Both the position numbers and the translations under genes were made by a program. The notes under the pieces are model-generated. The model did no database searches. It was not told the DNA's origin and saw nothing but the letters and a program-made list of their open reading frames with translations. Positions 4,947-41,958 of a stretch of 64,000 bases of DNA are shown here, in pieces (within the stretch, counting starts at the first letter, position 1; every line of letters begins with the position of its first letter). The DNA lies in the IMG/VR virus record IMGVR_UViG_3300017605_000245, positions 1-64,000 of that record; one strand, written 5' to 3'. The DNA is from a virus (taxonomy: Duplodnaviria; Heunggongvirae; Uroviricota; Caudoviricetes; Crassvirales).

Positions 4947-7343
4947 TTACACGCTTTTCTTTTTAATTCTAGCAATACTCTGGTCTACTTTCTTCGCATC
5001 CATAGTATCTTTATGTTTCTGCATATCATCGTTCAGACTTTTCATCTTTAAAAGATAATCATTCTTACTCTTCTCAACGTCTAGATTAAATTTATCTCTA
5101 TCTAGAGGAGATTCAATACCGTCATCTATAGTTTCTACTTCGGAACCTTTCATTTGCATTTCAAGTTCTTTAATATAAACTTTAGTTTCATTATCACGTT
5201 GATTCATGATATCTTGAAGATTAAGTTTATCTTTTTCTTGTTGAGCTTGTTGTTGCATTTGTTGTTCTTGAACTTTAGCTTGTTGTTGAGATTGTTCTGA
5301 ATTACGCTGATGCATCTCTTCTTCTGCAGTTTCAAGTTTTCTACGCATATCCATAAGTGAAGGACTAAAATAAATATCCATAATAGTCGACATAGATCCA
5401 CCATTCTGAATGAAAGCTTGAGCATATTGCTTAATAGCTTGTTCAAGTTCCATAGTCTTAGGTGTATTCGTAATAAGAATACCATAATCAGATTCTGCAA
5501 ATTCTTCGCCTTCTAAATTTAAAAGTTGAATAGTTTGATCGTCTAAAATATACTGTACTTTCTTATTCTCTTTACCTCTTAATGCAACTTTAGCTGTTTC
5601 TAAGAACGCTTCTAATACTCTAAGTTTACATGATTCATGTAACATAAACCAATATTCCGTAATATGTGAAGATTGATTTACTGCGCGTTCTACACCACCT
5701 AGTGTTTCACGATTTGAAATCTGACCTTCTCTTTGTTGAGATACTCCACAAAGCTCACCCATTTCCATTTTAATGAATTCAAGTAGTTGTATGTGTTGTT
5801 GAATATAACTACCCGTTTCCATATCAATAGAACGTCCACCAACAGTGTTCATAGAACCTGCTAATTTACCTGTGGATGCTCCATGATTACCTTCTTTAAA
5901 AGAATCTGTTACTGCGATCTTATTGACTACTGCAAAGTGTAACCATTTCTCTACTTCCCAATTAGCAGGAATCTTAGCTAAATCTAGTTCTAAGATTTTA
6001 CCGTAGTTTGTAGAGATTGCTTTATTTAATCTGTCATAAAGAGCATCGTACATATATTGATGATTCTTTGCTCTATCAACTAGTGATACCGCACGACCTT
6101 GATTTGTATTATAGATTTGTCCAATAATACCTAAATGTCCTTTAGAAGGATTATTAGACTTAGTATATTGAACTGGTAAAGGACGCATTTTAAGATAGAT
6201 ATCTTTACCTAATTTAACTCCTTCCCAACCTTCAGTAATCCAAAAGTCAGTTGTCTCTTCACCCATATTCTTATCTGCAATATATTCTTCAGATTCAAAT
6301 CTATATTGAACTTCACCATACTCATCATAGAACTTAACTTTTTTAACTCTACGTAAAGATTTCCATCTTACTTTAAGTTCTCTAAGGTTTCCATTTTCAT
6401 CTGTAAAATTAGAACCAAAGTGATGTCCATTTAATTCTGCAATATTGAATATAGAATCAACCATACCTGCATTAGTAGTTGAATCCCTAAATAAAGTATG
6501 ATTATCATTATCTTCAGAATAAGAACCATTACTACTTGTTGTAGTATATTCCATTAGATAATCAATATCTTCAGGTTTTAATTCATCAAAGTATTCATCT
6601 ACTAATTGATTTGCAGATTTATAATCTTCCATTATAATAATAGAAGCATCTTCAAATCTATCAGAATTACCACTTCTAATGGCATGTACTTTTAAAGGAT
6701 TAAGTTTAGTTAAACGTGGTTCATCAAATAATATATCTACAAGATATATTTCTTCAGCCATAATTAAGGCATCTTTGAATCCTTTACTAAATTTTTGTGC
6801 AAATTCTCCTTCTTGAAAATAATATTTTAGAATTTGATTTGCCATTTTCTCACGAAGGTCTTGATAACTATATTTCATATATTTATCTAGTTCCTTCAAT
6901 TTACCTTGTAATTCTTCATCTGAATAATTAGCTTGAAAGAATTGAGCAAGTTGTTCAGTTAAATATTTCTTTTTATCTTCTTCCTTTTTTGTAATTGCGT
7001 CAGAATCGGTAACTACAACAGACCAATCAAATCTTCTCTTTATCTCCTCACCTACAAGTAAATCTACTTTAGGTACAATAATAGGATAATGTGGGATATT
7101 ATCAGGAATATAAGAAGCATCGATCTGATTAGGATTAACTGTATTAGTTAAATCTCGAATATCTACAATACCATTATAAAGATTTAAATTAATAATCTTA
7201 TTTTGTAATGTTTGACGAACTTCTTCATTATGATAAAAAGAGTGTGTATCAGCATAATCCAAATTATCTTTACGCCATTCCTTATTTTTCTTTGAAAAAG
7301 GAAGACGTTGTCTAGGAAGTTGCACATTATTAATTCTACTCAT
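4947..7343 (-). CDS. Putative portal protein
   Basis: 798-aa ORF immediately downstream of the terminase large subunit and upstream of scaffold/MCP. Q-rich coiled-coil C-terminal tail. The assignment is positional. Confidence 0.5.
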   Translation of the reverse strand: MSRINNVQLPRQRLPFSKKNKEWRKDNLDYADTHSFYHNEEVRQTLQNKIINLNLYNGIVDIRDLTNTVNPNQIDASYIPDNIPHYPIIVPKVDLLVGEEIKRRFDWSVVVTDSDAITKKEEDKKKYLTEQLAQFFQANYSDEELQGKLKELDKYMKYSYQDLREKMANQILKYYFQEGEFAQKFSKGFKDALIMAEEIYLVDILFDEPRLTKLNPLKVHAIRSGNSDRFEDASIIIMEDYKSANQLVDEYFDELKPEDIDYLMEYTTTSSNGSYSEDNDNHTLFRDSTTNAGMVDSIFNIAELNGHHFGSNFTDENGNLRELKVRWKSLRRVKKVKFYDEYGEVQYRFESEEYIADKNMGEETTDFWITEGWEGVKLGKDIYLKMRPLPVQYTKSNNPSKGHLGIIGQIYNTNQGRAVSLVDRAKNHQYMYDALYDRLNKAISTNYGKILELDLAKIPANWEVEKWLHFAVVNKIAVTDSFKEGNHGASTGKLAGSMNTVGGRSIDMETGSYIQQHIQLLEFIKMEMGELCGVSQQREGQISNRETLGGVERAVNQSSHITEYWFMLHESCKLRVLEAFLETAKVALRGKENKKVQYILDDQTIQLLNLEGEEFAESDYGILITNTPKTMELEQAIKQYAQAFIQNGGSMSTIMDIYFSPSLMDMRRKLETAEEEMHQRNSEQSQQQAKVQEQQMQQQAQQEKDKLNLQDIMNQRDNETKVYIKELEMQMKGSEVETIDDGIESPLDRDKFNLDVEKSKNDYLLKMKSLNDDMQKHKDTMDAKKVDQSIARIKKKSV

Positions 7344-7414: not shown

Positions 7415-9676
7415 TTAATCAGTATTAAAGAATATATCTTTGTTTCCAATAGCCGTTTGCTTCTTATAGTTTTTAGTAAAGAAGTTGTCGTTCGATATAT
7501 GTTTATAATTAGTATCTTGATTCGCCTTAGCCGTTTGGGTTCTCTTGTAACGTTCTTCACGTAAGATCATTAACATACCCATTGCAGATACACGGTCAAA
7601 GTTACCATCACTATTCCACTTAATACACTCCTCAAGATAAGCGATACTTCTAATAGTATGTAGGTTTAATTTATCATCCTCATCATCTCCACTAGATGCT
7701 TTAGATAACATCCAGTCAGCTTGAAGTTTTCTACCCCACTTATTAAGTTCTGCATTAGCGTGTGTACCTTTAGCATTATTACCATAAGCAGCTAACGCTT
7801 TAGTAAGACCCATGTCTTTTACAATCTGAGGTGTATCACATAATCTATGTGTAGCATTCTGTTTATCAAAGTAACTAAATAGACCTTTTAAGTTTTTCTC
7901 ATAGTTAGCTTCTCCATTATAAAACTCAATTGTACGTAATGCAATTTCATAAGCTTCTTCTGCTAATCTTGGACGAGCAGAGTATTCACATACAATTCTA
8001 TCTGTAAATGTATCTAGTCCTTGAATACTAAATAATGATGTACCTGTATCAGCATCAACAGGGTCAATACCAAAGATATATCTACCTCTAGGTATTTCAC
8101 CATTAGCATTACGTTTAGGCATTTCAAATATTTCTAAACATCCTGTCTTATTAGAATCTTTATCATAACTTCTAATAGGATATAAATCGTCATTAGGTTT
8201 CCATTCAATACCTTGTGCAGTACGAACTAATTCTCCTACATAATGTTCGGCTAAGAACTTCTCACGTTGAGGTGCAATACTTTCTAGATATTCCTTTAAA
8301 TCAGATACAGGAAATAAAGTACCTTCAGTACGCATAACTGCTTCCTGTGGAGTAATAGGCAACTCAGCTTTCTTCTGCGTAATTGCATTTGGATCTTGAG
8401 AGTTATATTTAACTACATATCTCTCAGATAGAATTTCTATTAATGATTTAATTACATCAGGTTCTCCGTTTATAGGATCATAACAAGCATTACGATTTAA
8501 ATAGGCTCCCCAGAAATGACCACAAGTCGTATCTCCTGTTGTACCTTTATCAAATACATTTGGAATACCGTAAATGTTATATGCAGAACAATTGTAAAAT
8601 AATTTCTCAGATCCTTCAAAAGATCCTCCTTCAACTCCACCTGTACCTGCAGCAAGCATTAAACCTACAGCAATTCCACCATCTTCAAAACCTGGTCTAT
8701 TTACGTTCCAGGCTTTCTCTAGATTATCAAAGATTCCGTCTTCCTCATAATGACAGAAGACTCCCCTCGCACCCCTCGCTTTATCAGGATTATCCTTTAA
8801 TGATATTGCGTGTACAGAAGACATTAGTCCTTTACGTACACCATACTCATCAGTAAATCCTAACTGTACAACCATCTCACGCTTACCATCAATTAATCTG
8901 GTTTTAGCTAACGGAGTAGTTTCTGCAATATGATCTAGTACCTCTAATATTTTACCAAACAAACCTTTATCTCCTTGAAGATAAGATTTCTCATTTGCTA
9001 AGTGAAAATTAACGTTACCTGCTCCTGGATATACAAACATGTTTCTAGGAGACATTGCAGCGTTCTTAAATGACATACCTACACCCCTTGACTTTAAGTT
9101 CTTAGCATGTTTACCATTACATCTACATTGGTCTAAGTAATGGAAGAATAGATAATCACCTAACCATGGTTTAGGGAATCGTTTAACACGGTCTCCAGAC
9201 TTAGCACCTTCTTTAGTTTGTACTAACCAGATTGGACTATAGTTCCAATAGAAATATAAATATCCAGGTATCCATTCACCATCTGATTCACGAATCATTC
9301 CGTACTTCCACTTATGTAATTCATCTTTCCAGAATTGAGCAAAAGCAGATTTAGGATTAGGATTAACAGTTAAGTTAGTATATCTACCATGTTTCTCATA
9401 AAACATTGCTCGTTCTCTAAAGAAATCCATATCCTCAAGAATATGAGGATTTGTTATATCGACATCAATTCTACCATCATTGTAGAATTCGTTTTCCTTA
9501 GGTCTATCTTTAGCAAATCCTCGTATGTCTTCGGGTTGAATTAATCGTTTAATAAACTCAACATGTGTTATATAATCAAGTAGGTCTAACCATACTTCTT
9601 TTGGTAGCGAATCTTTTAATTCTTGTGTAAATGGTGTTTGGAATTTATTGAATTTATAATATTCTAATTCTTCCAT
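7415..9676 (-). CDS. terL: Terminase large subunit
   Basis: 753 aa. The C-terminal region has the RNaseH-like nuclease signature IFGIDPVDADTGTSLFSIQG (G-x-D-P ... S pattern of terminase nuclease domains). An upstream hydrophobic stretch ending in DE (MVVQLGFTDE) looks Walker-B-like. Sits at the head of the portal/scaffold/MCP operon. Confidence 0.7.
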   Translation of the reverse strand: MEELEYYKFNKFQTPFTQELKDSLPKEVWLDLLDYITHVEFIKRLIQPEDIRGFAKDRPKENEFYNDGRIDVDITNPHILEDMDFFRERAMFYEKHGRYTNLTVNPNPKSAFAQFWKDELHKWKYGMIRESDGEWIPGYLYFYWNYSPIWLVQTKEGAKSGDRVKRFPKPWLGDYLFFHYLDQCRCNGKHAKNLKSRGVGMSFKNAAMSPRNMFVYPGAGNVNFHLANEKSYLQGDKGLFGKILEVLDHIAETTPLAKTRLIDGKREMVVQLGFTDEYGVRKGLMSSVHAISLKDNPDKARGARGVFCHYEEDGIFDNLEKAWNVNRPGFEDGGIAVGLMLAAGTGGVEGGSFEGSEKLFYNCSAYNIYGIPNVFDKGTTGDTTCGHFWGAYLNRNACYDPINGEPDVIKSLIEILSERYVVKYNSQDPNAITQKKAELPITPQEAVMRTEGTLFPVSDLKEYLESIAPQREKFLAEHYVGELVRTAQGIEWKPNDDLYPIRSYDKDSNKTGCLEIFEMPKRNANGEIPRGRYIFGIDPVDADTGTSLFSIQGLDTFTDRIVCEYSARPRLAEEAYEIALRTIEFYNGEANYEKNLKGLFSYFDKQNATHRLCDTPQIVKDMGLTKALAAYGNNAKGTHANAELNKWGRKLQADWMLSKASSGDDEDDKLNLHTIRSIAYLEECIKWNSDGNFDRVSAMGMLMILREERYKRTQTAKANQDTNYKHISNDNFFTKNYKKQTAIGNKDIFFNTD

Positions 9677-11163
9677 TCTGACTGGTGGATTACGATTACA
9701 TTTGTTGATAAAATAATTTTAGCTACAGATACTGCATTTTCTAATGCACATCTAGTAACTTTAAGTGGGTCTACGATATTATCATTGAACATGTTTCTAC
9801 TTAAATCAAAAGTATATATTTCAACACCATCTTCTATCACTAGATTATTTTCTTTAAAAATAGTACAATATGGTTTCTGTAAACTATCTAAAATTGTTTC
9901 TTCAATTGCAGTAGAACTAACGGTCCTAAATGGGATAGTAGCTTTAATTAAAGCGTAACCTCCACCTTCAACAATACCTTCTTCTAATGCACATTGTGTA
10001 GCTTTGATAGCATCATCGTATCTATCAAATCTTTCTTTCATTTCTAATTCAGATTTACCACCAACTTTAATGATTGCTATTTTACCTGTTAGGTTTTCAA
10101 TACGTTGTTGTAGTAATTCTTTATCATATTCTTCTAGTTCAGGAGAAGTAAGTAACTCTTTAAAATTCTCTATAATCTCATCTACATTAACATCAGGATG
10201 ACGTAATAATACAGACACTGATTTAGAGACCTTACAAGACTTTAATTTACCTGTGACAGATAAAGTATAGTTTTTAGATAGATCGTTGATTACAGTGGAT
10301 CCTGTGAAGTCAGAGATATCTCTTAATAAGTCTTTACGATGTGTAGAAAATCCTGGTGATTTAATTACTGCTAATTTAATAGCTCCTGACAGTACGTTTG
10401 TTTCTAATAAACGTAACACATTTTCATGCACATGTTCTGTAATAATAAGAAGTGATTCATTATTCTCAGCACATGATTTAAAGATATATTCAAATGATTT
10501 TAGATTGTCTAGTTTTCCATCTAATATTAGAACTCTAGGATCTTCTAGTTCACATTCACCTTTTTTAGGATTAGTAATAAAATGTTTGGAAATATAAGAA
10601 GTCTGTAGTGACATTCCGTCAATTAATTCCAACTTATCTTCTAGATTATTACTCTCTTCAACTTTAACTATATCAGCAAAATCAAAAGCCTGTTGAATAG
10701 TATTCCCAATTTGTACATCGTTATTAGCAGATATACTAGCAACGTGTTTAATGTCTTCACGTTTTAATGACTTAGAGTTATTTTTAAGTTCTAATAAAAC
10801 CTTTGGTATAATCTCGTCAAAAGCTTTATTAATATCGTTTGATGGAAAGTCTTTTAAATTTTCAATAAAGGCTGTTGCCAATACTGTAGCGGTGGTAGTT
10901 CCATCACCTGCTTCCTCTACTGTTTTCTCTGCAGCTTGTTTTACAAGTTCAGCACCAATGTTCTCAACTACATCTTCGAAGTGAATAGTTTTAGCAACAG
11001 ATACACCATCTTTAGTGATAATGTATTTACCAAACTCTTTATCACTAGGAATAATAACTGTTGAACCATTAGGTCCCATCGTGCTTCCGACAGCTTTACC
11101 TAGAGTAGATATACCTCGGTATAATCTTTCTCTAGCTTCTTTATCAAATACTATTTCTTTCAT
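9664..11163 (-). CDS. groEL: GroEL-like group I chaperonin (Cpn60), phage-encoded, lacks C-terminal GGM tail
   Basis: The N-terminus aligns with GroEL along its length: KEIVFDKEAR...TLGPNG...ITKDGVSVAK, then the invariant nucleotide-binding motif EEAGDGTTTATVLA, and a C-terminal VEGGGYAL that matches GroEL (I)VAGGGVAL. 499 aa versus ~548 for bacterial GroEL. Confidence 0.85.
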   Translation of the reverse strand: MKEIVFDKEARERLYRGISTLGKAVGSTMGPNGSTVIIPSDKEFGKYIITKDGVSVAKTIHFEDVVENIGAELVKQAAEKTVEEAGDGTTTATVLATAFIENLKDFPSNDINKAFDEIIPKVLLELKNNSKSLKREDIKHVASISANNDVQIGNTIQQAFDFADIVKVEESNNLEDKLELIDGMSLQTSYISKHFITNPKKGECELEDPRVLILDGKLDNLKSFEYIFKSCAENNESLLIITEHVHENVLRLLETNVLSGAIKLAVIKSPGFSTHRKDLLRDISDFTGSTVINDLSKNYTLSVTGKLKSCKVSKSVSVLLRHPDVNVDEIIENFKELLTSPELEEYDKELLQQRIENLTGKIAIIKVGGKSELEMKERFDRYDDAIKATQCALEEGIVEGGGYALIKATIPFRTVSSTAIEETILDSLQKPYCTIFKENNLVIEDGVEIYTFDLSRNMFNDNIVDPLKVTRCALENAVSVAKIILSTNVIVIHQSEWKN

Positions 11164-12726: not shown

Positions 12727-13102
12727 ATATAAGTCTAAAATTAAATATTAATTTAAACTGTTTTGTCTTCTTATCAATATCAGGAACATAGTTTTTATTA
12801 ATCTGATTATCCATAATCACTTTAGACTTTCTTAATGACGATAATAAATTCTCAATAGAACCTATCTGAATACCCATCTCGTCAGATATAAGTACCTTCG
12901 TATCATAATCAAATACCTCCTTCCATAATATCTTATTATTTGTAATCTCTTTACTTAATTCATAGTGACGATATAATAGCAAAGATAATAAGACTTGTTG
13001 TTGTTTATTAAGTTTATGTAGAGGTCTTGTGAACTCTATCCACTTAAAGAAGAAGTCTTTAATTCTAATATTAATATTTGCTATCTTTTCATCTTTATTC
13101 AT
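12683..13102 (-). CDS. Hypothetical protein
   Basis: 139-aa ORF in the same operon series. Confidence 0.3.
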   Translation of the reverse strand: MNKDEKIANINIRIKDFFFKWIEFTRPLHKLNKQQQVLLSLLLYRHYELSKEITNNKILWKEVFDYDTKVLISDEMGIQIGSIENLLSSLRKSKVIMDNQINKNYVPDIDKKTKQFKLIFNFRLIYEENPRRESKSINS

Positions 13103-13766
13103 TTTCTAAATAGTTAATAATGTCTGTTAATATTAGATTTCTATGATTAGCTGTTAATGTTTTAAATCCTACTAATCCTGAATCCTGTAATTTAAGAATT
13201 CTGTGTAAACAACTATTACCATTGATAGATTTGTCTATTTGTTCTTTAGAACCACAGAAAATCATTTTACTACCTTTACCAAGTCTAGTAAGAATAGTTC
13301 TAAAATCGCTATAATCCATATCTTGAAATTCATCTACAATAACTACAGACTTAATGAATGTAACTCCTTTAGCAACTTCAATAGGCATAATCTTAATATC
13401 TCCTTCTTTCAACATCTTATCTGTTTGTTCTTTACCTTGACAAACCTCTAAGTTCTGTATAATAGGAAAGGTATAAGGAGCCATCTTTTCTTCCAGTGTT
13501 CCAGGAAGAGCAGCTAAGTTATTCTTTAACATAGGACGTGTAATCCATATATTATCAATACTAAACTCTTTACTTCTCTTTCTATACGCTTTTAATGCAG
13601 TATGTACTGCAGCTAATGATTTACCTGAACCAAAGTCTCCTAATAAGAAGTTTACATCGTACTGATAAAATAAAGCTACAAACTCTTTTTGTTCTTCGTT
13701 TAATTCAACTTTCAATTTAGGTTCTGTTTTCAGTTCCTGTTTCTCACTATTTAGAGTCTTTGCCAT
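13095..13766 (-). CDS. phoH: PhoH-like ATPase
   Basis: Walker A GDFGSGKS. PhoH-family blocks ITRPMLKNNLAALPGTLEEKMAPYTFP and VVIVDEFQDM...ILTRLGKGSKMIFCGSKEQID. The ORF track starts at 13841, but the MAKTLNS start at 13766 avoids overlap with the upstream gene. PhoH is common in large phages. Confidence 0.75.
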   Translation of the reverse strand: MAKTLNSEKQELKTEPKLKVELNEEQKEFVALFYQYDVNFLLGDFGSGKSLAAVHTALKAYRKRSKEFSIDNIWITRPMLKNNLAALPGTLEEKMAPYTFPIIQNLEVCQGKEQTDKMLKEGDIKIMPIEVAKGVTFIKSVVIVDEFQDMDYSDFRTILTRLGKGSKMIFCGSKEQIDKSINGNSCLHRILKLQDSGLVGFKTLTANHRNLILTDIINYLENE

Positions 13767-14064
13767 TGATAAATTTATTATATTCGTAAATATTTTCAAA
13801 TTCTTGCAATTCATTTTTAGATCCACATCTAAAACACACATCGTTATCTACATCATCTGTGATAATATGTAAGCTTTTACAGTATTTACATGCTACAACT
13901 GGTTCACTGTCATAGTCTTTTTTATCTTCTTTCATAATCTTAATTCTATTTTCTAAATCAGTTACCCACTCAGTATCATATACTGGAAATGGAGCCATAC
14001 TATTGTAATAGTTAACGTGGACCAGTAATTTCTCTAGATGTTTGAGTGTTATATTCCTTTTCAT
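13747..14064 (-). CDS. Small zinc-ribbon protein
   Basis: 105 aa with CKYC...CFRC (two CxxC pairs). Confidence 0.35.
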   Translation of the reverse strand: MKRNITLKHLEKLLVHVNYYNSMAPFPVYDTEWVTDLENRIKIMKEDKKDYDSEPVVACKYCKSLHIITDDVDNDVCFRCGSKNELQEFENIYEYNKFINGKDSK

Positions 14065-15711: not shown

Positions 15712-16254
15712 TTATTTTTTCTTATCCATATTTAACGATTCCACACCCCATTGTTGGTCTTGAATTAATCTGAAAGTACGTGCAATAGCAAAACTTGTTA
15801 TCTTAAAGTATTCAAATTTCAATCCATAATCTAAAGAGTTTAATTTATTCAAAACTGTTCCTTCTATATCAGAAGGATTTATTTCATTAGAATTTTTAGT
15901 GAAAATAAATGAAGCTACTTCACTTGAAGCAATATTACTAATTGTTGTTTCAGGATGATATAGTGTGTCATATAATTTTTGAATATCTACAATAGAATAA
16001 CCAATAGCTGAAGAAATAGTAATAGTTTTACTGTCTTTAGTGGTCACTGTTTGTGTAGGTGTGTCACCAATTCTCAATCTTGATTCTTGAATATAAACAC
16101 TGTCAAAATATGGTATTTTAAAATAAATACCTTTTTCTAATAGTTTTGTCTTATTGCCATTTCTAACTCTTATTCCTTGTTGCCAAGGTTGAATTATCAC
16201 CCAAATTTTAAATACATCAAAAATGTATTCGAAGAACTCTTTTATTTGTAACAT
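15712..16254 (-). CDS. SPFH/band-7 (stomatin/HflC-like) domain protein
   Basis: The N-terminal block VIIQPWQQGIRVRNGNKTKLLEKGIYFKIPYFDSVYIQESRL matches the SPFH pattern (V.QGE.GVV.RFGK...L.PGLHF.IPFID.V..V.LR). Start overlaps the upstream protease gene stop by 1 nt, which points to translational coupling. Confidence 0.6.
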   Translation of the reverse strand: MLQIKEFFEYIFDVFKIWVIIQPWQQGIRVRNGNKTKLLEKGIYFKIPYFDSVYIQESRLRIGDTPTQTVTTKDSKTITISSAIGYSIVDIQKLYDTLYHPETTISNIASSEVASFIFTKNSNEINPSDIEGTVLNKLNSLDYGLKFEYFKITSFAIARTFRLIQDQQWGVESLNMDKKK

Positions 16255-16787
16255 TATTTCTTACCTACTTTAAGTCTACCAAAATCCTTTCTATAAATAA
16301 CTACATCGTCTCCTGCAAAATACTGTTTAATTTCTTTAGATGTTAACCCAAGTTTCTTAAATTTAGTAGCAAGTCTCTCATTAATTTCTTTTAGTTGTTT
16401 ATACTCTTCCTCTTTATTGAAAGGTGTCTTTCTAAATTTACCACCAAACTCCATATCACCCATATGAAATAGAATCCATAATAAATCATCTGTTACATAT
16501 ACTGGTGCAGTACAATCTGTTAATAAGAAAGTACCTGCGGAAGCAATACCGCCAACTAAATGTACATTACAATCTGGATGACCGTTGATGAAATGAATAA
16601 GTGCATTCATAGAAACCATACATCCACCTGGTGTTGTTATAAATAAATCTACTGAAGGTACTCCTACAAGTACATCTATTAACTCTTGCACTGTCTCTGG
16701 TGTAATCTCGTCATTAAAGATACGGACATATCTTACGAACTCTGCTTCTTGTTCAAACATATTATTAGTTTTAAATTTGTAGTACAA
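16254..16787 (-). CDS. ClpP/NfeD-like serine protease (S14/S49-type fold)
   Basis: ITTPGGCMVSMNALIHFI...VGGIASAGTFLL parallels ClpP INSPGG...AIYDTM...GQAASMGAFLL, including the catalytic Ser position. It could be the prohead protease or an NfeD partner of the adjacent SPFH gene. Confidence 0.6.
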   Translation of the reverse strand: MYYKFKTNNMFEQEAEFVRYVRIFNDEITPETVQELIDVLVGVPSVDLFITTPGGCMVSMNALIHFINGHPDCNVHLVGGIASAGTFLLTDCTAPVYVTDDLLWILFHMGDMEFGGKFRKTPFNKEEEYKQLKEINERLATKFKKLGLTSKEIKQYFAGDDVVIYRKDFGRLKVGKK

Positions 16788-17096: not shown

Positions 17097-17601
17097 GACT
17101 TCAATTTAAATTAGATATAAAAATCCCCTAAGCCGACGTTTAAGTCAGTTAACGAGATATCACTATTCGCTTCAACTTATAAACCTTATATGATTGCCGT
17201 ACGTATGCTTAATAGCTTCACCCTCATGATACCCCAATGTTATATCACCCAATCAATTTCAATTCCATCTCTCGATGTTTAAAGTCCTTTTCACAACTAC
17301 CGGAGAAACCTCATCCACTATGTCGTATATTATTCCAATACTGCAGATTACTACCCGATGTCTTTAGGTCTAATACTTTCGCCTCAACCTCGATACTCTT
17401 TTGGAGTGTTGTTCACATTAATTACTGCAAATATACAAAATAAGTTTGACAATTCCTAATTTTTTTGCAACTATTTTATATGAAAAACTCATTATTTTTG
17501 TGAGTACCTGTATTTACTGGGATTTTAACCTTAAAAATATTTTTTTGGTAATTTTACAAATGATTTTCATTAACGTATGTGTAGACTAATTAGAATCATC
17601 A

Positions 17602-17683
17602 CCCCACCTTCATCGAACTTTGGGGATATACCCCGTAGTAAATTAGAAGTTTCAGTCCACTTAGGTCGAACTTCGGGGAAATA
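17602..17683 (+). promoter_or_regulatory. Two 27-nt imperfect direct repeats (R1 17602-17630, R2 17655-17683) upstream of the isolated GC-rich gene
   Basis: cCaCcTtcaTCGAACTTtGGGGAtATA versus cCaCtTaggTCGAACTTcGGGGAaATA: 21 of 27 positions identical, spaced 53 nt apart. R1 can also fold as ccccA(14)Tgggg. Candidate operator or promoter element; function unproven. Confidence 0.35.
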
Positions 17684-17752
17684 GTTTCCTTTTATGTTTA
17701 ACCAGAGCTACTGATGTCATGTATCGACCTTAGCTCACAATACTCACACACT

Positions 17753-18205
17753 ATGAATAAATTACACCTTACCACAGCACCAAGACTTGCAATGAATCGT
17801 AATGCAGCAGGTGAATTAGTTCCTTCCATTGACACTGTTAGTGGATTACAGGACATCAATGTTGCAGGATACTTAGTGTCTATCAAGCCTTCACCTATCG
17901 AGTACACACGTGCTGATGGTACTACAGGTACAGCCTACCAAGGTGTGTCCTTAGTAGCTAACGACAAAGGCGTTGAGACTACTGTAACAGTGTTAATCAA
18001 TGGTTCTGCTATTGAGAACGTTGAAGCAGGACAGACTTATTGGTTGACAGAACGTGTATCTAAAGACGGTCAGTACACTAACTACACACAAGGTGACTTG
18101 TTAGTAATGACTGCTGTTGACGCATCTGTTGCTACTAACAGACGTGCTGCATTACTTGCTAAAGCTGCTGAGGCTACTGCACCAGCTGTTGCTATTGCAC
18201 AGTAG
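17753..18205 (+). CDS. Stand-alone gene with atypical GC-richer, 'highly expressed' codon usage; function unknown (Ala-rich C-terminus)
   Basis: ORF 17714-18205. The more plausible start is MNKLHLTTAPRL at 17753. Codons are almost exclusively the gct/ggt/act/gtt/cgt/gac/aac type (Arg = cgt, whereas other genes use aga). Local GC is well above its surroundings. Flanked by a 600-nt ORF-free leader and its own terminator. Confidence 0.5.
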   Translation: MNKLHLTTAPRLAMNRNAAGELVPSIDTVSGLQDINVAGYLVSIKPSPIEYTRADGTTGTAYQGVSLVANDKGVETTVTVLINGSAIENVEAGQTYWLTERVSKDGQYTNYTQGDLLVMTAVDASVATNRRAALLAKAAEATAPAVAIAQ

Positions 18206-18224
18206 TGATTTAACACCTAGAATA

Positions 18225-18258
18225 ATAGGGACGACTTAACCGTTGTCCTTATTATTTT
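18225..18258 (+). terminator. Rho-independent terminator
   Basis: GGGACGAC-TTAACC-GTTGTCC (7-8 bp stem with one G·U pair) followed by TTATTATTTTA, 20 nt after the stop at 18205. Confidence 0.6.
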
Positions 18259-18870
18259 ACCTATTAATTAGAGGCATCACTCAACAATTTCTTTCGTGGT
18301 AGAATTTTTAACACTCAATCATTATATGTTGCATAAATCTTTTACACCTATATATATTATGTGTGATGAGAGATGAGGTTGTGTGCTGTTTATCAATTCC
18401 CTAATCTCAACATATTCCCATATACTCATTAATTTGAGTCTCAACTATATCAAATATAGCCTTTATACATCATTTTACAATCACTAGTATAATCACATTT
18501 TACTACATATGTCGTGTTCAATCGGAACATTATGGTGTATAAATTGCTATTATCTTTACAATTCTAACTACAAATTACTAACTAAAACTACAATATTATG
18601 ATTAAATTAGCATACATTGTTGTACTTATGAATATCTTAATTGCAATTATACACAACAACGTTCATTCAATGATGGGTTGGATGTGCTGTATAATTTACA
18701 TTAGAGCATATGAACAACAATATTAAAACTGACTCCTAGCCTAAGGGTGGACATAGAAGGCATATTATTTACAATATAACCTATTATATATTGTATCTTA
18801 CATAAACTCTGTTTAGTAATTTATAGAGGAAAACTGGGATAGGCAGGAATAATTACACAATCTTTTTAAT

Positions 18871-18905
18871 AAGACTACAATGTAATGTTGTAGTCTTATT
18901 TTATT
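18871..18905 (+). terminator. Rho-independent terminator inside ORF-free region
   Basis: Perfect 10-bp stem AAGACTACAA / TTGTAGTCTT with 7-nt loop TGTAATG, followed by ATTTTATTATT. Confidence 0.65.
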
Positions 18906-19109
18906 ATTAACCATTAATCTTATATAACCATGGAACATTATTATATTGTTAAAGACTCACAACACAATGTTATTGTGCAGTCATCAATGCATGAACTAAC
19001 TATAGGTGGATTATATCACACAGATAATGGTTCAATGATACCACTTCAACTAATTTGTTTAAACTAACTAAATATACATTATATATTATACTTATAAATT
19101 ATATCAAAA

Positions 19110-19138
19110 GAATGCTGTCATTGTATAGCATTCTTTTT
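19110..19138 (+). terminator. Rho-independent terminator inside ORF-free region
   Basis: GAATGCT-GTCATTGTAT-AGCATTC (7-bp stem) followed by TTTTTAA. Confidence 0.55.
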
Positions 19139-19449
19139 AATGCATCATTTCACATTCCCAAGGTGTGACTATTATAAGTTACTGTCCAGTCAGTATTTAC
19201 AGAGTAAGAACTGCTTATAATAGAATGCAGAGGGTTTACATTTTAATAACCAGAGATGATAGAAGGTGTGCTGGCTCACCGTGAACATTACACAAAAATA
19301 ACTTTATAATGAAATCCCATATTACCTTTGGATGTAGTTTGTACTACTAGTTATACACAACAAAAATGTCAAGTTATCTCTAACCTCACTTAAATGTGCA
19401 ATAGAGTTTTTATAGACATTTACTTTTTAACCAACAAATAAAAATAATT

Positions 19450-19782
19450 ATGAACACAAAAACATTTTATGGACTATGTGCAGTTATCTCATCATTTGTA
19501 TTATTTTGTGTAGCATTCACAATATATACAATATGTACTGCACCTTCAAATGATAATTTAAATGTATCGTTACCTGAAGAAATTAAAGTAGCTGAACAAA
19601 ATGATAAGCTAATAGTATTAAGTGTATCAGATTCTATATATTTAGGATATGATAACAAAACAGAATATGATTTAGAATTAATTAACAATGATTCTATTCG
19701 TGTATACTCCGTTGTAAGTGATACAACATATTATTGTCATCCAAATGACCTATTACAGGTATTAGTAGATGATAATCAATAA
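19450..19782 (+). CDS. Membrane-anchored hypothetical protein
   Basis: 110 aa with N-terminal TM helix (FYGLCAVISSFVLFCVAFTIYTIC). First gene of the plus-strand block. Confidence 0.35.
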   Translation: MNTKTFYGLCAVISSFVLFCVAFTIYTICTAPSNDNLNVSLPEEIKVAEQNDKLIVLSVSDSIYLGYDNKTEYDLELINNDSIRVYSVVSDTTYYCHPNDLLQVLVDDNQ

Positions 19783-20562: not shown

Positions 20563-20826
20563 ATGTTTGTAATACATAATGGTCGTTGGGTGAATAATAG
20601 TAGCCCAACAACACCATTAACTGCGATGGAACAACATGCAGTAGCTAGACATATTAAAACTACAATGTCATCACTATTTGGTACATTTGAAGCTACACCA
20701 AATAAGATTAATGCTATTAATCAAATTGTACAATCAGACGAAACTAAATCATTATTAATTAACAGAATTTTAAACTCTACACCTAAAAAGCTAAAAGAAA
20801 TTAAATTGTTTTTAGGTGTTAAATAA
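20563..20826 (+). CDS. Hypothetical protein
   Basis: 87-aa ORF, 2-nt spacing from the upstream gene. Confidence 0.3.
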   Translation: MFVIHNGRWVNNSSPTTPLTAMEQHAVARHIKTTMSSLFGTFEATPNKINAINQIVQSDETKSLLINRILNSTPKKLKEIKLFLGVK

Positions 20827-21208
20827 TAATATTATGAAAAATATAATTGTAATTGTTAAAAAACAAAAAGAATTAGATATTCCTTCTAAAGGTACATTGG
20901 GTGGTTCGGTTCCATTGTTACGAATAGGAAGAATAAATAATCCTAAAATAAAAAGTTAAACATTGAATTTGTAAATAAAAGGTAAAATTAAGACTGAAAG
21001 GTAGCCGAGGTTGTAATCTCCTCATCTAATTTACAAAAAGATACTAAGCCTGAATTGACAGGATGTTAGAGATATTGGGGCAGCACCAATACTTGTTAGA
21101 CTAACAGTAAAGTCGCTAACGGAGTAATCCTAATATTTTCAATGTTTTTAAAACAGTTTTAATACTTTCTGTAAAAAAGTATTATTTTTAACTAATTAAT
21201 CTATAATT

Positions 21209-21463
21209 ATGAGTAATTTACAAAGATTAACAAATAATGCTTTTGGTATAAGAAAGTATTTAGCTAAAAAAGGTTTTGATGTTGGAGGTAAAGGTAGAAA
21301 ACCAAATGAAATATTAATTAAATTCTTAAAAGAACATAATTTAAAATATGAAAAATGGAATTCTAGATATAAAGGTTTCTTTACTGCAGAATTATCAAAT
21401 GCAATAACAGTTTCGGATAATTGGGAACTATTTAAAATTTGGATTAATAATCAAACAAAATAA
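21209..21463 (+). CDS. Hypothetical basic protein
   Basis: 84-aa ORF, K/R-rich. Confidence 0.35.
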   Translation: MSNLQRLTNNAFGIRKYLAKKGFDVGGKGRKPNEILIKFLKEHNLKYEKWNSRYKGFFTAELSNAITVSDNWELFKIWINNQTK

Positions 21464-21469: not shown

Positions 21470-21788
21470 GGGCTCGACTGGTTTTGACCTGATACGTGGA
21501 AAATATAATTCAGCACTGAGAGATAACAGTATAAAACTAAGGTGAATTTTATTAAATGGCAAAAATCAAGTTTCAGCTAATATGGCTAAAGTTATGACAT
21601 TAATTAACTCTGACATCATCGCGAATGAGCCAGAAATGTTAATGGCTGCCTAGTTGCCTTTCTTGCATGGTATAATGCAAGTGGTGGAGAATTAAGTCAA
21701 ACACCAATTGAATTTAATTCCTTAAAAGCTGTATAAAATTATATTAAAAGTTTATTGGGATACGGCGGTTCGACTCCGCCCGAGTCCA
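21470..21788 (+). ncRNA. ssrA: tmRNA-like gene (SsrA-like), with candidate tag reading frame 21619-21651 (ANEPEMLMAA-stop)
   Basis: 5' end GGGCUCG-A-CUGGUUUUGAC resembles the tmRNA 5' motif (E. coli GGGGCUG-A-UUCUGGAUUCGAC). 3' end has a canonical T-arm GGCGG-TTCGACT-CCGCC, then CGAGUCC plus discriminator A. These pair with the 5' GGGCUCG, including a G3·U70 wobble (the tRNA-Ala identity element that tmRNAs keep). The internal short frame GCG AAT GAG CCA GAA ATG TTA ATG GCT GCC TAG encodes ANEPEMLMAA (compare E. coli ANDENYALAA). CCA is not encoded. Confidence 0.55.
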
Positions 21789-21815
21789 CTTGTCAATCGT
21801 GTAAAGTTGATTGTA

Positions 21816-21856
21816 AGTCGTTGAGGGTACGACTATAAATAATAACCCTCATTTTA
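21816..21856 (+). terminator. Terminator-like hairpins after the tmRNA-like gene
   Basis: AGTCG-TTGAGGGTA-CGACT and an outer TGAGGG...CCCTCA, followed by TTTTA. Weaker than the other terminators. Confidence 0.35.
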
Positions 21857-21883
21857 CTAACTAAACTAAATTAATTAAATATT

Positions 21884-30124: not shown

Positions 30125-31687
30125 ATGAATCCATTATTATATGTAGATTTTTATAAACCTCATCATCAGGATATGTACCCTGAAAATATGACAAAACTTT
30201 ATTCTAATTTTACACCACGTAAAAGTAGATTAAAAGGAATTGACAATGTTGTTGTATTCGGTATTCAACATTTCGTATTAGAATATCTTATTAAAAAGTT
30301 TAATAATGATTTTTTTGGAAAACCTAAATTTAATACAAATCATTATGGTACTATTTTACCAGGAGTTATTGAAGAATATCGTCGTCATGTGTCAATTGAT
30401 ACAAAACGAATTGAAGCATTATGGGATTTAGGTTATTTACCTATTGAAATTAAAGCTTTAGATGAAGGTACTTTATGTCCTATTGGTGTACCAATGATGA
30501 CTATTACAAATACTCATCCTGATTTTGCATGGTTAGTTAACTATTTAGAAACTTTAATTAGTTGTCAATTATGGCAACCAGTTACTTCAGCAACAATTGC
30601 TTATGAATATAAAAAGATTCTTAATAAATATGCTATTGAAACTACAGGTTCAACTGAAGGAGTACAATGGCAAGCTCATGATTTTTCAATGCGTGGTATG
30701 TCTTCTGTTGAGTCTGCCATTCTTTCTGGTATGGGTCATCTTACATCTTTTACAGGAACTGATGTTATACCTGCAATTTATGCACTTGAAACATCTTATC
30801 AAGCGACTGGATTAATTGGTGCTTCTGTACCTGCTACTGAGCATTCTGTTATGTGTATGGGTACTAAAGAAAGTGAAATTGAAACTTTTCAAAGACTTTT
30901 AAATACATATCCAACAGGAATTCTATCTGTAGTATCTGATACTTGGGATTTATGGAAAGTTTGTACAGAATATTTACCAGCTTTAAAAGATCAAATCTTA
31001 GCTAGAGATGGTAAATTAGTTATTCGTCCTGACTCAGGAGATCCAGTAGATATTATTTGTGGTAATGGTGGTTTCTATACAAATGAAATAGGTTTAAACT
31101 TTGATGTAAAATTCCAAGAACAATCTAATGAAAGTAAAGGAGTAATTGAATTACTTTGGAATGCTTTCGGAGGAACTGTTAATGAACAAGGTTATAAAGT
31201 ATTAGATTCACATATTGGAGCTATTTATGGTGATAGTATTACTATGGACAGAGCTATTCAGATCTGTGAGAGACTTAAAGCTAAAGGTTTTGCAAGTACT
31301 AATATTGTATTAGGTATAGGAAGTTATACTTATCAATACAATACTCGTGATACATTTGGATTTGCAATGAAAGCAACGTACGGGGAAACATTAGAATTTG
31401 ATAATGATTACAGTGTTAATGGAGATAGTATTTACAAGTCTGTAGGGAGAGAAATATTTAAAGATCCAATTACAGATGATGGCACTAAGAAATCTAAAAA
31501 AGGTTTATTATGTGTTGTCAACGATACATTAGTTGCGGGATTAAAAGAAGGGGAAATTGCGGTACTTGATCAGTGTAGTAGTTATCAAGAATCACTTGGT
31601 TTACTTACAACAGTATTTAAAGACGGTAAACTTATTAAAGAAACTACTTTGGATGAGATTAGAGAACGTTTAAATTCTACATTATAA
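30125..31687 (+). CDS. Nicotinamide phosphoribosyltransferase-like (NAMPT/NadV family; alternatively a NARP1 Namat-type enzyme)
   Basis: LLYVDFYKPHHQDMYPENMTKLYSNFTPRKSR matches the NAMPT N-terminal block (TDSYK.THY.QYP......Y...R). HDFSMRGMSS and IRPDSGDPVD match the NAMPT GFGxRG and (V/I)RPDSG(D/N)P blocks. 520 aa. Confidence 0.8.
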   Translation: MNPLLYVDFYKPHHQDMYPENMTKLYSNFTPRKSRLKGIDNVVVFGIQHFVLEYLIKKFNNDFFGKPKFNTNHYGTILPGVIEEYRRHVSIDTKRIEALWDLGYLPIEIKALDEGTLCPIGVPMMTITNTHPDFAWLVNYLETLISCQLWQPVTSATIAYEYKKILNKYAIETTGSTEGVQWQAHDFSMRGMSSVESAILSGMGHLTSFTGTDVIPAIYALETSYQATGLIGASVPATEHSVMCMGTKESEIETFQRLLNTYPTGILSVVSDTWDLWKVCTEYLPALKDQILARDGKLVIRPDSGDPVDIICGNGGFYTNEIGLNFDVKFQEQSNESKGVIELLWNAFGGTVNEQGYKVLDSHIGAIYGDSITMDRAIQICERLKAKGFASTNIVLGIGSYTYQYNTRDTFGFAMKATYGETLEFDNDYSVNGDSIYKSVGREIFKDPITDDGTKKSKKGLLCVVNDTLVAGLKEGEIAVLDQCSSYQESLGLLTTVFKDGKLIKETTLDEIRERLNSTL

Positions 31688-39848: not shown

Positions 39849-40091
39849 ATGACGAATGATGAAATTATAACAAAGATTAGAGAATATCTGAAGTGGTCTC
39901 ACAATAGTGACAAAGAGATTACAATTACAGATAGATTAAAAGAAGACCTTGAGTTAGATAGTATAGATATTATAGAACTAACTCTTGAAATTGAACAAGC
40001 TTTCAATATGAGAATACCTGATAACGAAATAGAATATTGTAAAACAGTTAAAGACCTTTTAAATTCAATACACAAATATGAAAGAACTTGA
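39849..40091 (+). CDS. Acyl carrier protein-like
   Basis: 80 aa. DLELDSIDIIELTLEIEQAFNMRIPDNE matches the ACP phosphopantetheine-attachment block ([28 protein letters not shown]), with the Ser in DSID. Confidence 0.6.
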   Translation: MTNDEIITKIREYLKWSHNSDKEITITDRLKEDLELDSIDIIELTLEIEQAFNMRIPDNEIEYCKTVKDLLNSIHKYERT

Positions 40092-40897: not shown

Positions 40898-40898
40898 T

Positions 40899-41138: not shown

Positions 41139-41141
41139 ATT

Positions 41142-41948: not shown

Positions 41949-41958
41949 ATTTAACAAA

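Follow-up and report, generated by a model that had tools for sequence, protein, structure and literature searches.

A probable one-piece tmRNA gene with a long, conserved tag in a crAss-like phage

Introduction

Does a crAss-like phage encode its own tmRNA, and what kind of tag would such an RNA add? The question is raised by a short segment of the window, i.e. the whole 64,000-nt stretch of viral DNA analysed here, for which an earlier note had proposed a phage-encoded tmRNA-like gene. Phage tmRNAs have been described in cluster C mycobacteriophages (Bxz1 and others), in Bacillus phage G and in Cellulophaga phage Calle, with two-piece forms in Melnitz and pelagimyophages, and about 2.3% of sequenced phages carry a tmRNA according to ARAGORN (PMC4131195, PMC9004378, PMC8776804). 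They have been tallied in genome tables and hardly studied.

Identification of the gene

The Rfam covariance model RF00023 matched the window at 21470-21791(+) over the full model (1-374), with an E value of 8.5e-17 and a score of 50.1 bits, which exceeds the gathering score of 47 bits by only 3 bits. The other family members scored gave 21.9-72.8 bits. ARAGORN called no tmRNA in the window. Considering that the same program calls a tmRNA in 53 of 70 unique relatives, in the same frame every time, its miss in the window is taken as a false negative. As the Rfam margin is narrow and ARAGORN failed, confidence in the assignment comes mainly from the comparative evidence. For this, relatives were gathered by an exact-pattern search for a conserved 29-nt block and studied as three sets: 98 delimited elements, 70 unique members and an alignment of 24 compact members.

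The RF00023 match, the pairing of the two ends with compensatory change in relatives and the context of the resume codon bear out the proposal of a tmRNA-like gene, and the boundaries given in the earlier note were exact (Table 1). From the sequence comparisons, 21470-21788(+) is likely a working ssrA gene for a one-piece tmRNA, carried by a crAss-like phage and belonging to a phage-borne lineage from Bacteroidota-type tmRNA. The phage origin of the window is indicated by its ORFs, which include a Crassvirus major capsid protein (PF23898, 573 bits), a portal, a large terminase and a DNA polymerase. The CCA end is absent from the gene, where CUU directly follows the discriminator. A two-piece (circularly permuted) tmRNA was ruled out, the order being 5′ acceptor, tag, T-arm and 3′ acceptor.

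Table 1. Positions of the gene and of its predicted or observed parts in the window
Feature	Position	Strand	Remarks
Whole one-piece tmRNA gene (predicted)	21470..21788	+	319 nt; Rfam RF00023; ends delimited by acceptor and T-arm; aligned with 23 relatives
Acceptor stem, 5′ strand GGGCUCG	21470..21476	+	Pairs with 21781-21787; read from sequence
D-loop analogue ACUGGUUUUGA	21477..21487	+	Fits Rfam consensus GAucuGGaUUCGAC
P2a, 5′ strand CCUGAUA	21488..21494	+	Pairs with UAUUGGG, 21753-21759; register in the window judged by eye
P2b, 5′ strand AAUAUAAUU	21502..21510	+	Perfect 9-bp complement to AAUUAUAUU, 21737-21745
Probable P2c, 5′ strand CAGC	21511..21514	+	Would pair with GCUG, 21728-21731, in invariant AAGCUGUAU
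Short hairpin at the block	21515..21518 with 21527..21530	+	ACUG with CAGU; 3-4 bp
Conserved 29-nt block GAGAGAUAACAGUAUAAAACUAAGGUGAA	21518..21546	+	At PK1 position; at least 119 IMG/VR contigs
Frame-setting UAAAU, then predicted resume codon GGC (Gly, 21558-21560)	21553..21560	+	Comparison with family, Bacteroidota and Rfam
Tag frame GKNQVSANMAKVMTLINSDIIANEPEMLMAA	21558..21653	+	31 codons plus UAG stop (21651-21653); open in 70/70 members
Most conserved tag part ANMAKVMTLIN	21576..21608	+	Family consensus ANM-x-(K/V)-V-(F/H)-(S/N)-(L/I)-(L/I)-x
Hairpin A, CUUGCAU-GGUAUA-AUGCAAG	21662..21681	+	Directly after stop codon; also in single-sequence MFE fold
Helix B, GG.GG (21683-21687) with UUCC (21718-21721)	21683..21721	+	Encloses A/U-rich segment
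T-arm GGCGG-UUCGACU-CCGCC	21764..21780	+	100% paired; 4/5 pairs compensatory across relatives
Acceptor stem, 3′ strand CGAGUCC, and discriminator A (21788)	21781..21788	+	Read from sequence and relatives
Possible terminator-like hairpin UGAGGGU...ACCCUCA, then UUUU	21822..21855	+	34 nt past gene; ViennaRNA fold of 21789-21862; low confidence

tRNA-like domain and P2 helix

The two ends of the gene form a 7-bp acceptor stem with G1-C72, G2-C71 and G3·U70. These three pairs are present in 24 of 24 aligned members and in all 98 delimited elements, which came from a search that demanded GGG at positions 1-3; the tRNA-Ala-like G3·U70 acceptor noted earlier thus holds in the window and in every delimited relative. 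The discriminator is A in 98 of 98 delimited elements. Compensatory changes occur at acceptor positions 4-6 across relatives, and among the delimited elements covariation is seen at acceptor positions 4-7 and in the T stem, so that the pairing of acceptor and T-arm, to be expected if the 5′ and 3′ ends fold together, is observed with compensatory change. The domain also has a T-arm and a D-loop analogue, and no anticodon arm. The D-loop analogue, ACUGGUUUUGAC, agrees with the RF00023 consensus and is near-identical to the canonical Bacteroidota tmRNA stretch GACUGGUUUUGACAG; in known tmRNAs this region is the SmpB-binding part.

A P2 helix backed by covariation connects the tRNA-like domain to the mRNA-like domain. 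In P2a, both-sided changes were found in 7 of 8 pairs (RNAalifold and pair counts), and in P2b compensatory changes affect 7 of 10 pairs. P2c is probably, by analogy, the counterpart of the CAUGC/GCAUGUAG element in the Rfam consensus; both of its strands are invariant and covariation is therefore uninformative there. Over the whole structure of the 24 compact members, 95.7% of cells pair, compared with 45-54% when the strands are slid, and compensatory change is present at 27 of 41 pairs, values that none of 500 shuffles reached. P2 is missing from the single-sequence MFE fold of the window gene (z = −2.0), in which the acceptor stem and the T-arm do form, together with one internal hairpin.

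Tag reading frame

In the Rfam alignment the resume codon of the model falls on GGC 21558. This codon has the canonical U-5/A-4 context and lies about 89 nt into the gene, much as in canonical Bacteroidota tmRNAs, whose resume codon is likewise a GGC, near nt 96, with comparable nucleotides before it. In 70 of 70 unique members G(G/A)N follows (U/A)AA(A/U)(U/C), 9-13 nt past the block. The resume codon predicted from these alignments is GGC 21558.

The frame that opens there is free of stops in all 70 unique members and has a length of 26-45 codons. The earlier note had read ANEPEMLMAA-TAG as the tag: its frame and stop are real, but the 10-mer is only the C-terminal third of 31 residues. Differences between members number 3,751, 3,534 and 13,379 at codon positions 1, 2 and 3, respectively, and the synonymous fraction over the whole frame is 0.566 versus 0.233 expected. 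Taken by segment, it amounts to 0.39 in the N-terminal part, 0.82 in the core and 0.45 in the C-terminal part, with 0.16-0.22 in shifted frames. The N-terminal segment holds stops in 0/70 members in this frame versus 45/70 and 19/70 in the other two. The frame of the mRNA-like domain evolves under protein-level purifying selection.

The selection is strongest in the 11-residue core ANMxxVxxxxx, where 82% of single-base differences are synonymous. Its codon use in the 70 members is 55/8/6/1 for Ala GCT/GCA/GCC/GCG and 42/28 for Asn AAC/AAT, with ATG in 70/70. The last three tag residues are VAA, LAA, IAA, MAA or AAA in 63 of 70 members, and the window tag ends in ...LMAA. The tags fall into subtypes, among them a VFSLL type and a VVHNILN type.

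An alternative reading is an ordinary small ORF in a tRNA-like-flanked transcript, with initiation at the AUG of ANM (21582), a 23-residue peptide MAKVMTLINSDIIANEPEMLMAA and no trans-translation. This ATG, kept in every member, is always the first in-frame AUG, the strongest peptide conservation begins at ANM, and ARAGORN often begins its tag call in family members at that Ala. However, the selection extends upstream of the AUG: the two preceding codons vary synonymously (four codons for Ala, two for Asn), Gln at −3 is kept as CAA or CAG, and the 6-17 upstream codons, which are the stop-free N-terminal segment with its synonymous fraction of 0.39, show a third-position excess (3,967 vs 1,862 and 1,371). 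Moreover, the frame opens at G(G/A)N in a tmRNA frame-setting context, at the canonical distance from the 5′ end, and the ORF sits inside a complete tRNA-Ala-like scaffold. We therefore judge initiation at the ANM codon improbable, and keep to a tag that begins at GGC.

PK1 position and 3′ domain

The position of PK1 is occupied by the 29-nt block. Because the family was gathered with an exact pattern for this block, its invariance is a matter of ascertainment and not evidence, and for the same reason covariation cannot probe it. The short hairpin at the block shows a single U-A to A-U swap relative to relatives. A second PK1 stem was not found by manual inspection, RNAalifold or a covariation scan of all column pairs, in which the block is invariant by ascertainment. 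A candidate stem between AGAGAGAU of the block and AUUUCUCU just past the stop codon is not claimed here: it pairs over at least 7 bp in 50% of members versus 17% of control windows, it is missing in phi14:2, in FpV4 and in the nearest relatives of the window gene, and it competes with hairpin A.

For canonical PK2-4, RNAalifold and the covariation scan gave no supported crossing stems in the window or the other compact members, in which the 3′ domain consists of one well-supported hairpin and one further helix. The hairpin (A) occurs in relatives in the compensatory versions CUCUGUU/AACAGAG, CUCUAUU/AAUAGAG and CCCUAUU/AAUAGGG. In helix B, the weakest among the supported helices, 94.8% of cells pair, with a change on both sides at 1 pair. 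Several accepted tmRNA lineages have reduced PK2-4 or can do with replacements for them, which makes these pseudoknots typical of tmRNA and not strictly defining. The earlier note had looked for both pseudoknots and a resume codon; the resume codon is present, while canonical pseudoknots could not be demonstrated. As the other defining features of a tmRNA are found and pseudoknot reduction is known in other tmRNA lineages, the missing pseudoknots are not taken as refuting the assignment.

A molecule with reduced pseudoknots, from a window with no SmpB detected among its ORFs of at least 70 aa, might instead act as a decoy whose tRNA-like domain titrates host SmpB (and AlaRS or EF-Tu) and so shuts down host trans-translation; a TLD-only molecule of mycobacteriophage DS6A has been proposed as such an inhibitor (PMC4131195). 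A decoy would gain nothing from being translated. In 70/70 members, however, purifying selection clearly acts on the encoded peptide, the stop codon and the hydrophobic-AA C-terminus are kept, and the P2 helix and the resume context are conserved. A pure decoy is thus hardly to be expected, and a working tmRNA agrees better with these data.

The window copy could also be a decaying, non-functional relic of the family. Its Rfam score is among the lower ones in the member range, ARAGORN misses it, and it is among the shortest members, with the most A/U-rich 3′ domain. Nevertheless, all helices pair in its own sequence, its G3·U70 pair, discriminator A and T-loop show no damage, and the frame is open with a family-typical core and the ...LMAA end. 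Hairpin A, in particular, differs from the majority sequence by seven compensating substitutions and still pairs. Decay is very unlikely on this evidence, which favours a functional gene.

Family and distribution

The family is a large one in phages of Flavobacteria. The block pattern was found in at least 119 IMG/VR contigs, and further members occur in 29 records of phages of Flavobacterium psychrophilum (FpV4-type) as well as in Cellulophaga phage phi14:2. None of the 31 GenBank/RefSeq records that carry it annotates a tmRNA there. Among 185,579 species-representative genomes the block occurs in only one, on a 4.9-kb MAG contig. The tmRNA family is, as judged from this distribution, a phage lineage and not a host gene. 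No protein gene of the neighbourhood is common to more than about 20 of the 98 loci. Megablast of the window region against GenBank phages gave no match, and the 5′ 19-mer of the window gene is absent from IMG/VR; for its 3′ 25-mer the sole match was an unrelated GC-rich phage of 195 kb that has a canonical tmRNA. One member (L090) carries a group I intron in the T-loop; once the intron is removed, T-arm and acceptor are perfect again.

An origin from host DNA, as a recently captured host ssrA or an attP-type ssrA fragment left behind by integration and excision, with no phage-specific role, is extremely improbable. In its favour, prophages often integrate at tmRNA genes, many viral contigs have a canonical ssrA copy at one end, and Bacteroidota ssrA has a similar 5′ tRNA-like strand and the same GGC resume codon. 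Against it, the window gene is complete and not a 3′ fragment, its block is a viral signature nearly missing from host genomes, its tag has 26-45 codons in the family versus 9 in canonical copies, the family is kept in distinct groups of lytic phages whose gene neighbourhoods vary, and no integrase was detected among the window ORFs scanned. The complete gene, the viral signature and the lack of a detected integrase speak against an attP ssrA fragment in particular.

Comparison with known systems

The phage gene shares with Bacteroidota tmRNA (tag GENNYALAA) a tRNA-Ala-like domain with G3·U70 and discriminator A, a long P2 and an almost identical 5′ strand (GGGG.UGACUGGUUUUGACAG). Both have no start codon and resume at a Gly codon (GGC) that lies in A/U-rich surroundings some 90 nt into the RNA, and both tags end in a hydrophobic residue followed by Ala-Ala. 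The differences lie in the mRNA-like and 3′ parts. The phage tag, with 26-45 codons (31 in the window) versus 9, is three to five times longer and includes an internal core, conserved in the family and missing from the host tag; PK1 is replaced by the lineage-specific 29-nt block with one short hairpin; and the 3′ domain is reduced, giving 319 nt overall compared with 393-399 nt. Additionally, the long-tag gene is phage-borne, its block being found in only one of the species genomes, on a short MAG contig, and in no host chromosome.

Tags of unusual length are not restricted to phages. Mycoplasma tmRNA tags, studied by Gur and Sauer in 2008, are reportedly about 27 residues long and recognised by Lon rather than ClpXP. 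The phage tag is like them in its unusual length, spread determinants, polar N-terminal part (D/G-K-N...) and hydrophobic C-terminus; it has no sequence homology to them and stands on another scaffold lineage, so the likeness is a functional analogy only.

As in earlier phage tmRNAs, complete ssrA genes are present in lytic phages without smpB, the partners being presumed to come from the host. The window family differs from those in being a separate one-piece lineage, derived, as far as its sequence indicates, from Bacteroidota-type tmRNA. The TLD-only fragment of DS6A is likewise a phage-borne tRNA-like domain with alanine identity elements (PMC4131195), whereas the window gene has a complete, selected mRNA-like domain. 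Phage tmRNAs themselves are already known; the long-tag lineage appears to be undescribed, as the searchable literature describes no phage tmRNA with a long tag conserved at the peptide level.

Proposed function

We propose that the window tmRNA would be co-transcribed with a small ORF upstream, the stop codon of which precedes G1 by 7 nt, that its 5′ end would be cut by host RNase P and its 3′ end trimmed, and that, CCA not being encoded, the CCA would be added by a host enzyme. Charging with alanine by host AlaRS would proceed via G3·U70/A73. With host SmpB and EF-Tu, the RNA would then occupy the vacant A site where ribosomes have stalled on broken mRNAs, and translation would resume at the GGC codon, adding Ala and the encoded peptide, and terminate at UAG 21651. 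The hydrophobic-Ala-Ala C-terminus may serve as a ClpX-type degron. The core ANMxxVxxxxx, which is absent from the 9-residue host tag GENNYALAA, would most likely give an adaptor or a different protease an additional feature to recognise, by analogy with the Lon-directed mycoplasma tags. The likely benefit would be that ribosomes keep recycling during host mRNA decay and that the phage sets the fate of tagged chains.

A further step is to suppose a phage-specific trans-translation, in which the core docks a partner that the host tag does not engage (a protease, an adaptor or a phage factor), the phage controls both rescue and chain fate from the first minutes, and the tag is more than a generic degron. 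We put this forward tentatively, as a possible but rather doubtful extension.

Why should a lytic phage supply a ribosome-rescue RNA and a tag of its own, and with what gain? The family poses this question directly. The added tag is predicted to have been remodelled to 27-46 residues (Ala plus 26-45 encoded), with the core under stronger selection than the ends. The family is large and cultivable, in Cellulophaga baltica with phi14:2 and in Flavobacterium psychrophilum with FpV4-type phages. It also reveals an annotation gap, in that ARAGORN-based pipelines miss about a quarter of its members and mis-start most tags.

Genomic surroundings and expression of a homologue

A Pfam search of the window ORFs of at least 70 aa gave no SmpB, CCA-adding enzyme, ClpX or Lon. 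All tmRNA partners would therefore have to be supplied by the host. A ClpP-like ORF (16254-16787, minus strand) is not linked to the tmRNA, because it has an SPFH/Band-7 neighbour and looks like part of a stomatin/NfeD-type pair. A promoter and terminator scan around the window gene gave nothing over background; the possible terminator-like hairpin of Table 1 was skipped by the strict terminator scan since its loop is 16 nt.

In many relatives the tmRNA gene lies directly downstream of a second, unclassified structured RNA, here called element X. Element X had no Rfam match even at E up to 10, and in the window it is represented by its two 5′ blocks only, the core being absent.

The phi14:2 homologue of the tmRNA, whose predicted tag begins with GNDTDNTQLK, lies at 4031-4500 of its record (NC_021806), inside the gap between g004 and g006. 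The junctions of this gap were reported to be transcribed rightward from the earliest time point, at a level above most protein-coding genes, and to be stable late in infection, the intergenic region having been described as an abundant, stable "non-coding RNA" (bioRxiv 10.1101/2020.03.07.982082). From the sequence positions, one of the two "long non-coding RNAs" that are abundant in phi14:2 infection is probably a member of the tmRNA family, a match that depends on the presumed coordinates of "g005". Both intergenic regions, which hold the tmRNA homologue and element X, have been described as abundantly transcribed from early infection (bioRxiv 10.1101/2020.03.07.982082). There are hints that the tmRNA and element X form a dedicated non-coding RNA cassette.

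Identification of the tmRNA gene

The Rfam tmRNA model RF00023 matched the gene end to end (21470-21791, plus strand) with 50.1 bits, above its gathering score of 47 (E 8.5e-17). The acceptor stem with its G3·U70 wobble, the discriminator A and the T-arm, as read from the sequence, are all as the earlier note had described them. When the window tmRNA was folded alone, the acceptor stem, the T-arm and one hairpin were recovered in the minimum free energy structure (z = -2.0). ARAGORN, a check suggested in the same note, called only a tRNA-Val(cac) and a tRNA-Ser(cga) in the window and reported no tmRNA. Considering this miss and the borderline Rfam score, comparative evidence was therefore required. 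The window genome has a GC content of about 29% and encodes the Crassvirus major capsid protein (PF23898, 573 bits), portal, large terminase and DNA polymerase; it is a crAss-like phage.

Features of the tmRNA gene and of selected neighbouring genes in the window
Feature	Position	Strand	Remark
Acceptor stem	GGGCUCG 21470-76 with CGAGUCC 21781-87	+	includes G3·U70
Discriminator A	21788	+	read from sequence
T-arm GGCGG-UUCGACU-CCGCC	21764-80	+	read from sequence
D-loop analogue ACUGGUUUUGAC		+	in the window tmRNA, read from sequence
Small ORF	21209-21463	+	stop codon 7 nt before tmRNA start
Hairpin then UUUU	21822-55	+	fold downstream of tmRNA
PhoH	13095-13841	-	auxiliary metabolism gene
Nicotinamide phosphoribosyltransferase	30125-31687	+	auxiliary metabolism gene
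Predicted gene cluster, part 1	39849-49355	+	acyl-carrier-like PP-binding protein, gamma-glutamyl cyclotransferase (GGACT), two Peptidase_C26/GATase proteins
Predicted gene cluster, part 2	39849-49355	+	phiEco32-like COOH-NH2 ligase, GATase_6 protein, Amidoligase_2 protein
B12-dependent (class II-like) ribonucleotide reductase	52336-54264	+	auxiliary metabolism gene
ThyX	58698-59390	+	auxiliary metabolism gene

A phage-borne tmRNA family

By blastn, the 5' third of the window tmRNA was linked to phi14:2, a Cellulophaga phage (Crassvirales, Steigviridae), and to FpV4-type phages (Fipvunavirus) of Flavobacterium psychrophilum. The phi14:2 site is a tmRNA by Rfam (46.0 bits) and by ARAGORN, and the FpV4 and FPSV-S29 sites are tmRNAs by Rfam (58.2 bits); none of the 31 GenBank/RefSeq records carrying the family has a tmRNA annotated there. 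A conserved 29-nt block, GAGAGAUAAC.GU..AAACUAAGGUGAA (window 21518-21546), has matches in at least 119 IMG/VR contigs. Among 185,579 species-representative genomes it matched just one, a Flavobacteriales MAG, where it lies on a 4.9-kb contig. This distribution marks the family as a lineage of phages rather than host ssrA.

The 70 unique sequences are 301-474 nt long, and the closest to the window gene shares only about 72% identity with it. ARAGORN recognises 53 of them as tmRNAs, each time with a tag frame identical to the comparative one, its resume codon agreeing in only 9 members. Of 123 elements, 98 were delimited by a script that required GGG at the first three positions; C72, C71 and U70 stand opposite this preset G1-G3, with a discriminator A, in all 98, and there is free covariation at acceptor positions 4-7 and in the T stem. 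Of the undelimited elements, most are complete according to Rfam or carry a variant T-loop. CCA is encoded in only one of the 98, and not in the window's gene.

RNA structure

RNAalifold, applied to an alignment of 24 compact members including the window, returned six elements: the acceptor stem and T-arm, P2a and P2b, a hairpin directly after the stop codon (hairpin A) and one further helix. In these six elements 95.7% of cells are paired, versus 45-54% with partner columns slid, both sides have changed in 27 of 41 pairs, and none of 500 shuffles matched any observed pairing measure. Every helix is also paired in the window's own sequence, and the pairing of the 5' and 3' ends expected in the earlier note is borne out by both the fold and the pair counts.

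Canonical pseudoknots, whose absence that note had listed among its refuting conditions, were not demonstrable in the family by RNAalifold or by an all-pairs scan, the latter giving no family-wide crossing stem; the PK1 position is occupied by the conserved block with a single 3-4-bp hairpin (ACUG/CAGU in the window, CAG/CUG elsewhere). Additionally, the purine-rich part of the block (window 21517-21523) is complementary to a pyrimidine stretch after the stop codon (21659-21665; alignment columns 50-57/232-239). This complementarity, clade-specific, is 7 bp or longer in 50% of members versus 17% of control windows. The pairing would enclose the entire tag frame, competes with hairpin A and could be an alternative conformation.

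The tag

The Rfam-aligned resume codon of the window is GGC at 21558-60. Each of the 70 unique members has a G(G/A)N codon 9-13 nt 3' of the block, after (U/A)AA(A/U)(U/C), the U-5/A-4 resume context known from E. coli; this codon opens a frame of 26-45 codons ending in UAA or UAG. The window tag is GKNQVSANMAKVMTLINSDIIANEPEMLMAA, of 31 residues. ANEPEMLMAA, proposed earlier as the tag, makes up only its last third.

Single-base codon differences in this frame number 3,751, 3,534 and 13,379 at positions 1, 2 and 3, and 56.6% are synonymous versus 23.3% expected. The synonymous fraction is 0.39 in the N-terminal segment, 0.82 in the core (ANM and 10 residues) and 0.45 in the C-terminal segment; shifted frames give 0.16-0.22. 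The N-terminal segment has stop codons in none of the 70 members, versus 45 and 19 in the other two frames. The tag frame evolves as coding sequence. The AUG of the core is invariant and is the first in-frame AUG in every member; just before it, Ala is written with four codons (55/8/6/1) and Asn with two (42/28), and this variation speaks against a conventional translation start there. The tags end in VAA (37), LAA (10), IAA (6), MAA (6), AAA (4), MVA (4), and EAA, FAA and LVA (once each).

The gene has tmRNA architecture and a frame under selection, and the evidence best supports a working tmRNA that uses host partners. An ordinary small ORF, a decoy titrating SmpB, a captured host fragment and a decayed copy are all disfavoured by the coding selection, the completeness and the distribution of the family. 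We infer charging, rescue and proteolysis: the window tmRNA would rely on host AlaRS, SmpB, EF-Tu, RNase P and CCA-adding enzyme, stalled chains would receive Ala and the 31-residue tag with its ClpX-type C-terminus, and the conserved core may be an additional recognition determinant.

Relation to known tmRNAs

For comparison, canonical Bacteroidota-type tmRNAs were taken from viral contigs. Many lie at the end of a contig, the position to be expected if a prophage has integrated at ssrA. Their tag is GENNYALAA, most measure 393-399 nt, and translation resumes at a GGC close to nt 96. Their 5' strand, GGGG.UGACUGGUUUUGACAG, is nearly identical to that of the phage family, which therefore appears to be a Bacteroidota-type tmRNA that has diverged: its tag became three- to five-fold longer and gained a conserved core, the block took the place of PK1, and the 3' domain shrank in the compact members.

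Phage tmRNAs are already known as a kind: they occur in about 2.3% of phage genomes by ARAGORN (PMC9004378), are listed for mycobacteriophages and Bacillus phage G (PMC4131195), and Cellulophaga phage Calle has 'one tmRNA gene' (PMC8776804). Neither this lineage nor its long conserved tag was found to be described in the searchable literature. On an unrelated GC-rich large phage contig (IMGVR_UViG_3300017987_000003, 195 kb), several tRNA genes surround a canonical tmRNA (locus L001, 7236-7594, 106 bits, tag GENMPLQEAA) whose 25-nt T-arm and acceptor 3' string is identical to the window's.

Genomic context and expression

Among window ORFs of at least 70 aa, Pfam gave no SmpB, CCA-adding enzyme, ClpX or Lon, and any one protein gene is linked to the family tmRNA at about 20 of the 98 loci at most. 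Since the window tmRNA starts just past the stop of the upstream small ORF, the two are probably co-transcribed and the transcript then processed by RNase P. Scans for consensus promoters and terminators gave nothing above background.

Two long intergenic regions of phi14:2, at the g004-g005 and g005-g006 junctions, are reported to yield RNAs seen from the earliest time point on, without a later drop, and their 'functions ... remain to be determined' (bioRxiv 10.1101/2020.03.07.982082). In NC_021806, g004 ends at 2904, g006 starts at 4602, and the tmRNA homologue occupies 4031-4500 inside that gap, indirect evidence that it may be expressed.

Elsewhere in the window, a GroEL-like chaperonin (9664-11163, minus strand; phrog_5725 E 2e-123, Cpn60_TCP1 E 1.5e-42) adjoins the large terminase. 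An SPFH/Band-7 protein (15712-16254, minus) abuts a ClpP-like serine protease ORF (16254-16787, minus; phrog_1827 'ATP-dependent protease', E 2e-10), an arrangement resembling bacterial stomatin/NfeD pairs. The cluster in the table is predicted to serve small-molecule or peptide modification. A switch of transcription strand (17100-19450), with a GC skew sign change near 18-20 kb, coincides with about 1.2 kb (18205-19450) lacking ORFs of at least 50 aa, notable repeats and Rfam matches.

Element X and unusual family loci

A second conserved non-coding element, element X, with a core of about 270 nt, is present in 31 family loci (phi14:2 locus L002 388-1081, about 2905-3600 of the record). It lies on the tmRNA strand in 30 of the 31, its 3' end usually 0-90 nt upstream of the tmRNA, and contains the invariant motifs CCUUGAGAAAGG, AAUGAGUUCUCAGCAAGUAGUUA, AACUACGUGACCCUA and GGGUGCUAA, as well as a long-range helix in which 7 consecutive pairs show compensatory changes. 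It has no Rfam match, even at E up to 10, and coincides with the second abundant 'lncRNA' region of phi14:2. The window carries its two 5' blocks only (20955-20977 and 21026-21068), within the ORF-free gap 20826-21209.

In a 100-kb record (IMGVR_UViG_3300012909_000001; locus L012, 2791-7978), at least 18 tRNA genes follow the family tmRNA in an array, past which lie a second short tmRNA-model match (6900-6975, 29.7 bits) and a YrlA (Y RNA-like) match below threshold (7864-7978, 39 bits versus 69). In another locus (L090, 1231-2247), an insertion of some 690 nt with a match to the group I intron model (RF00028, 94.1 bits) splits the tmRNA gene within its T-loop (GUGGGUU / CGACUCCCAC); splicing to the 3' exon CGACUCCCACCACCUCCA at 2230-2247 would restore a perfect T-arm and acceptor.
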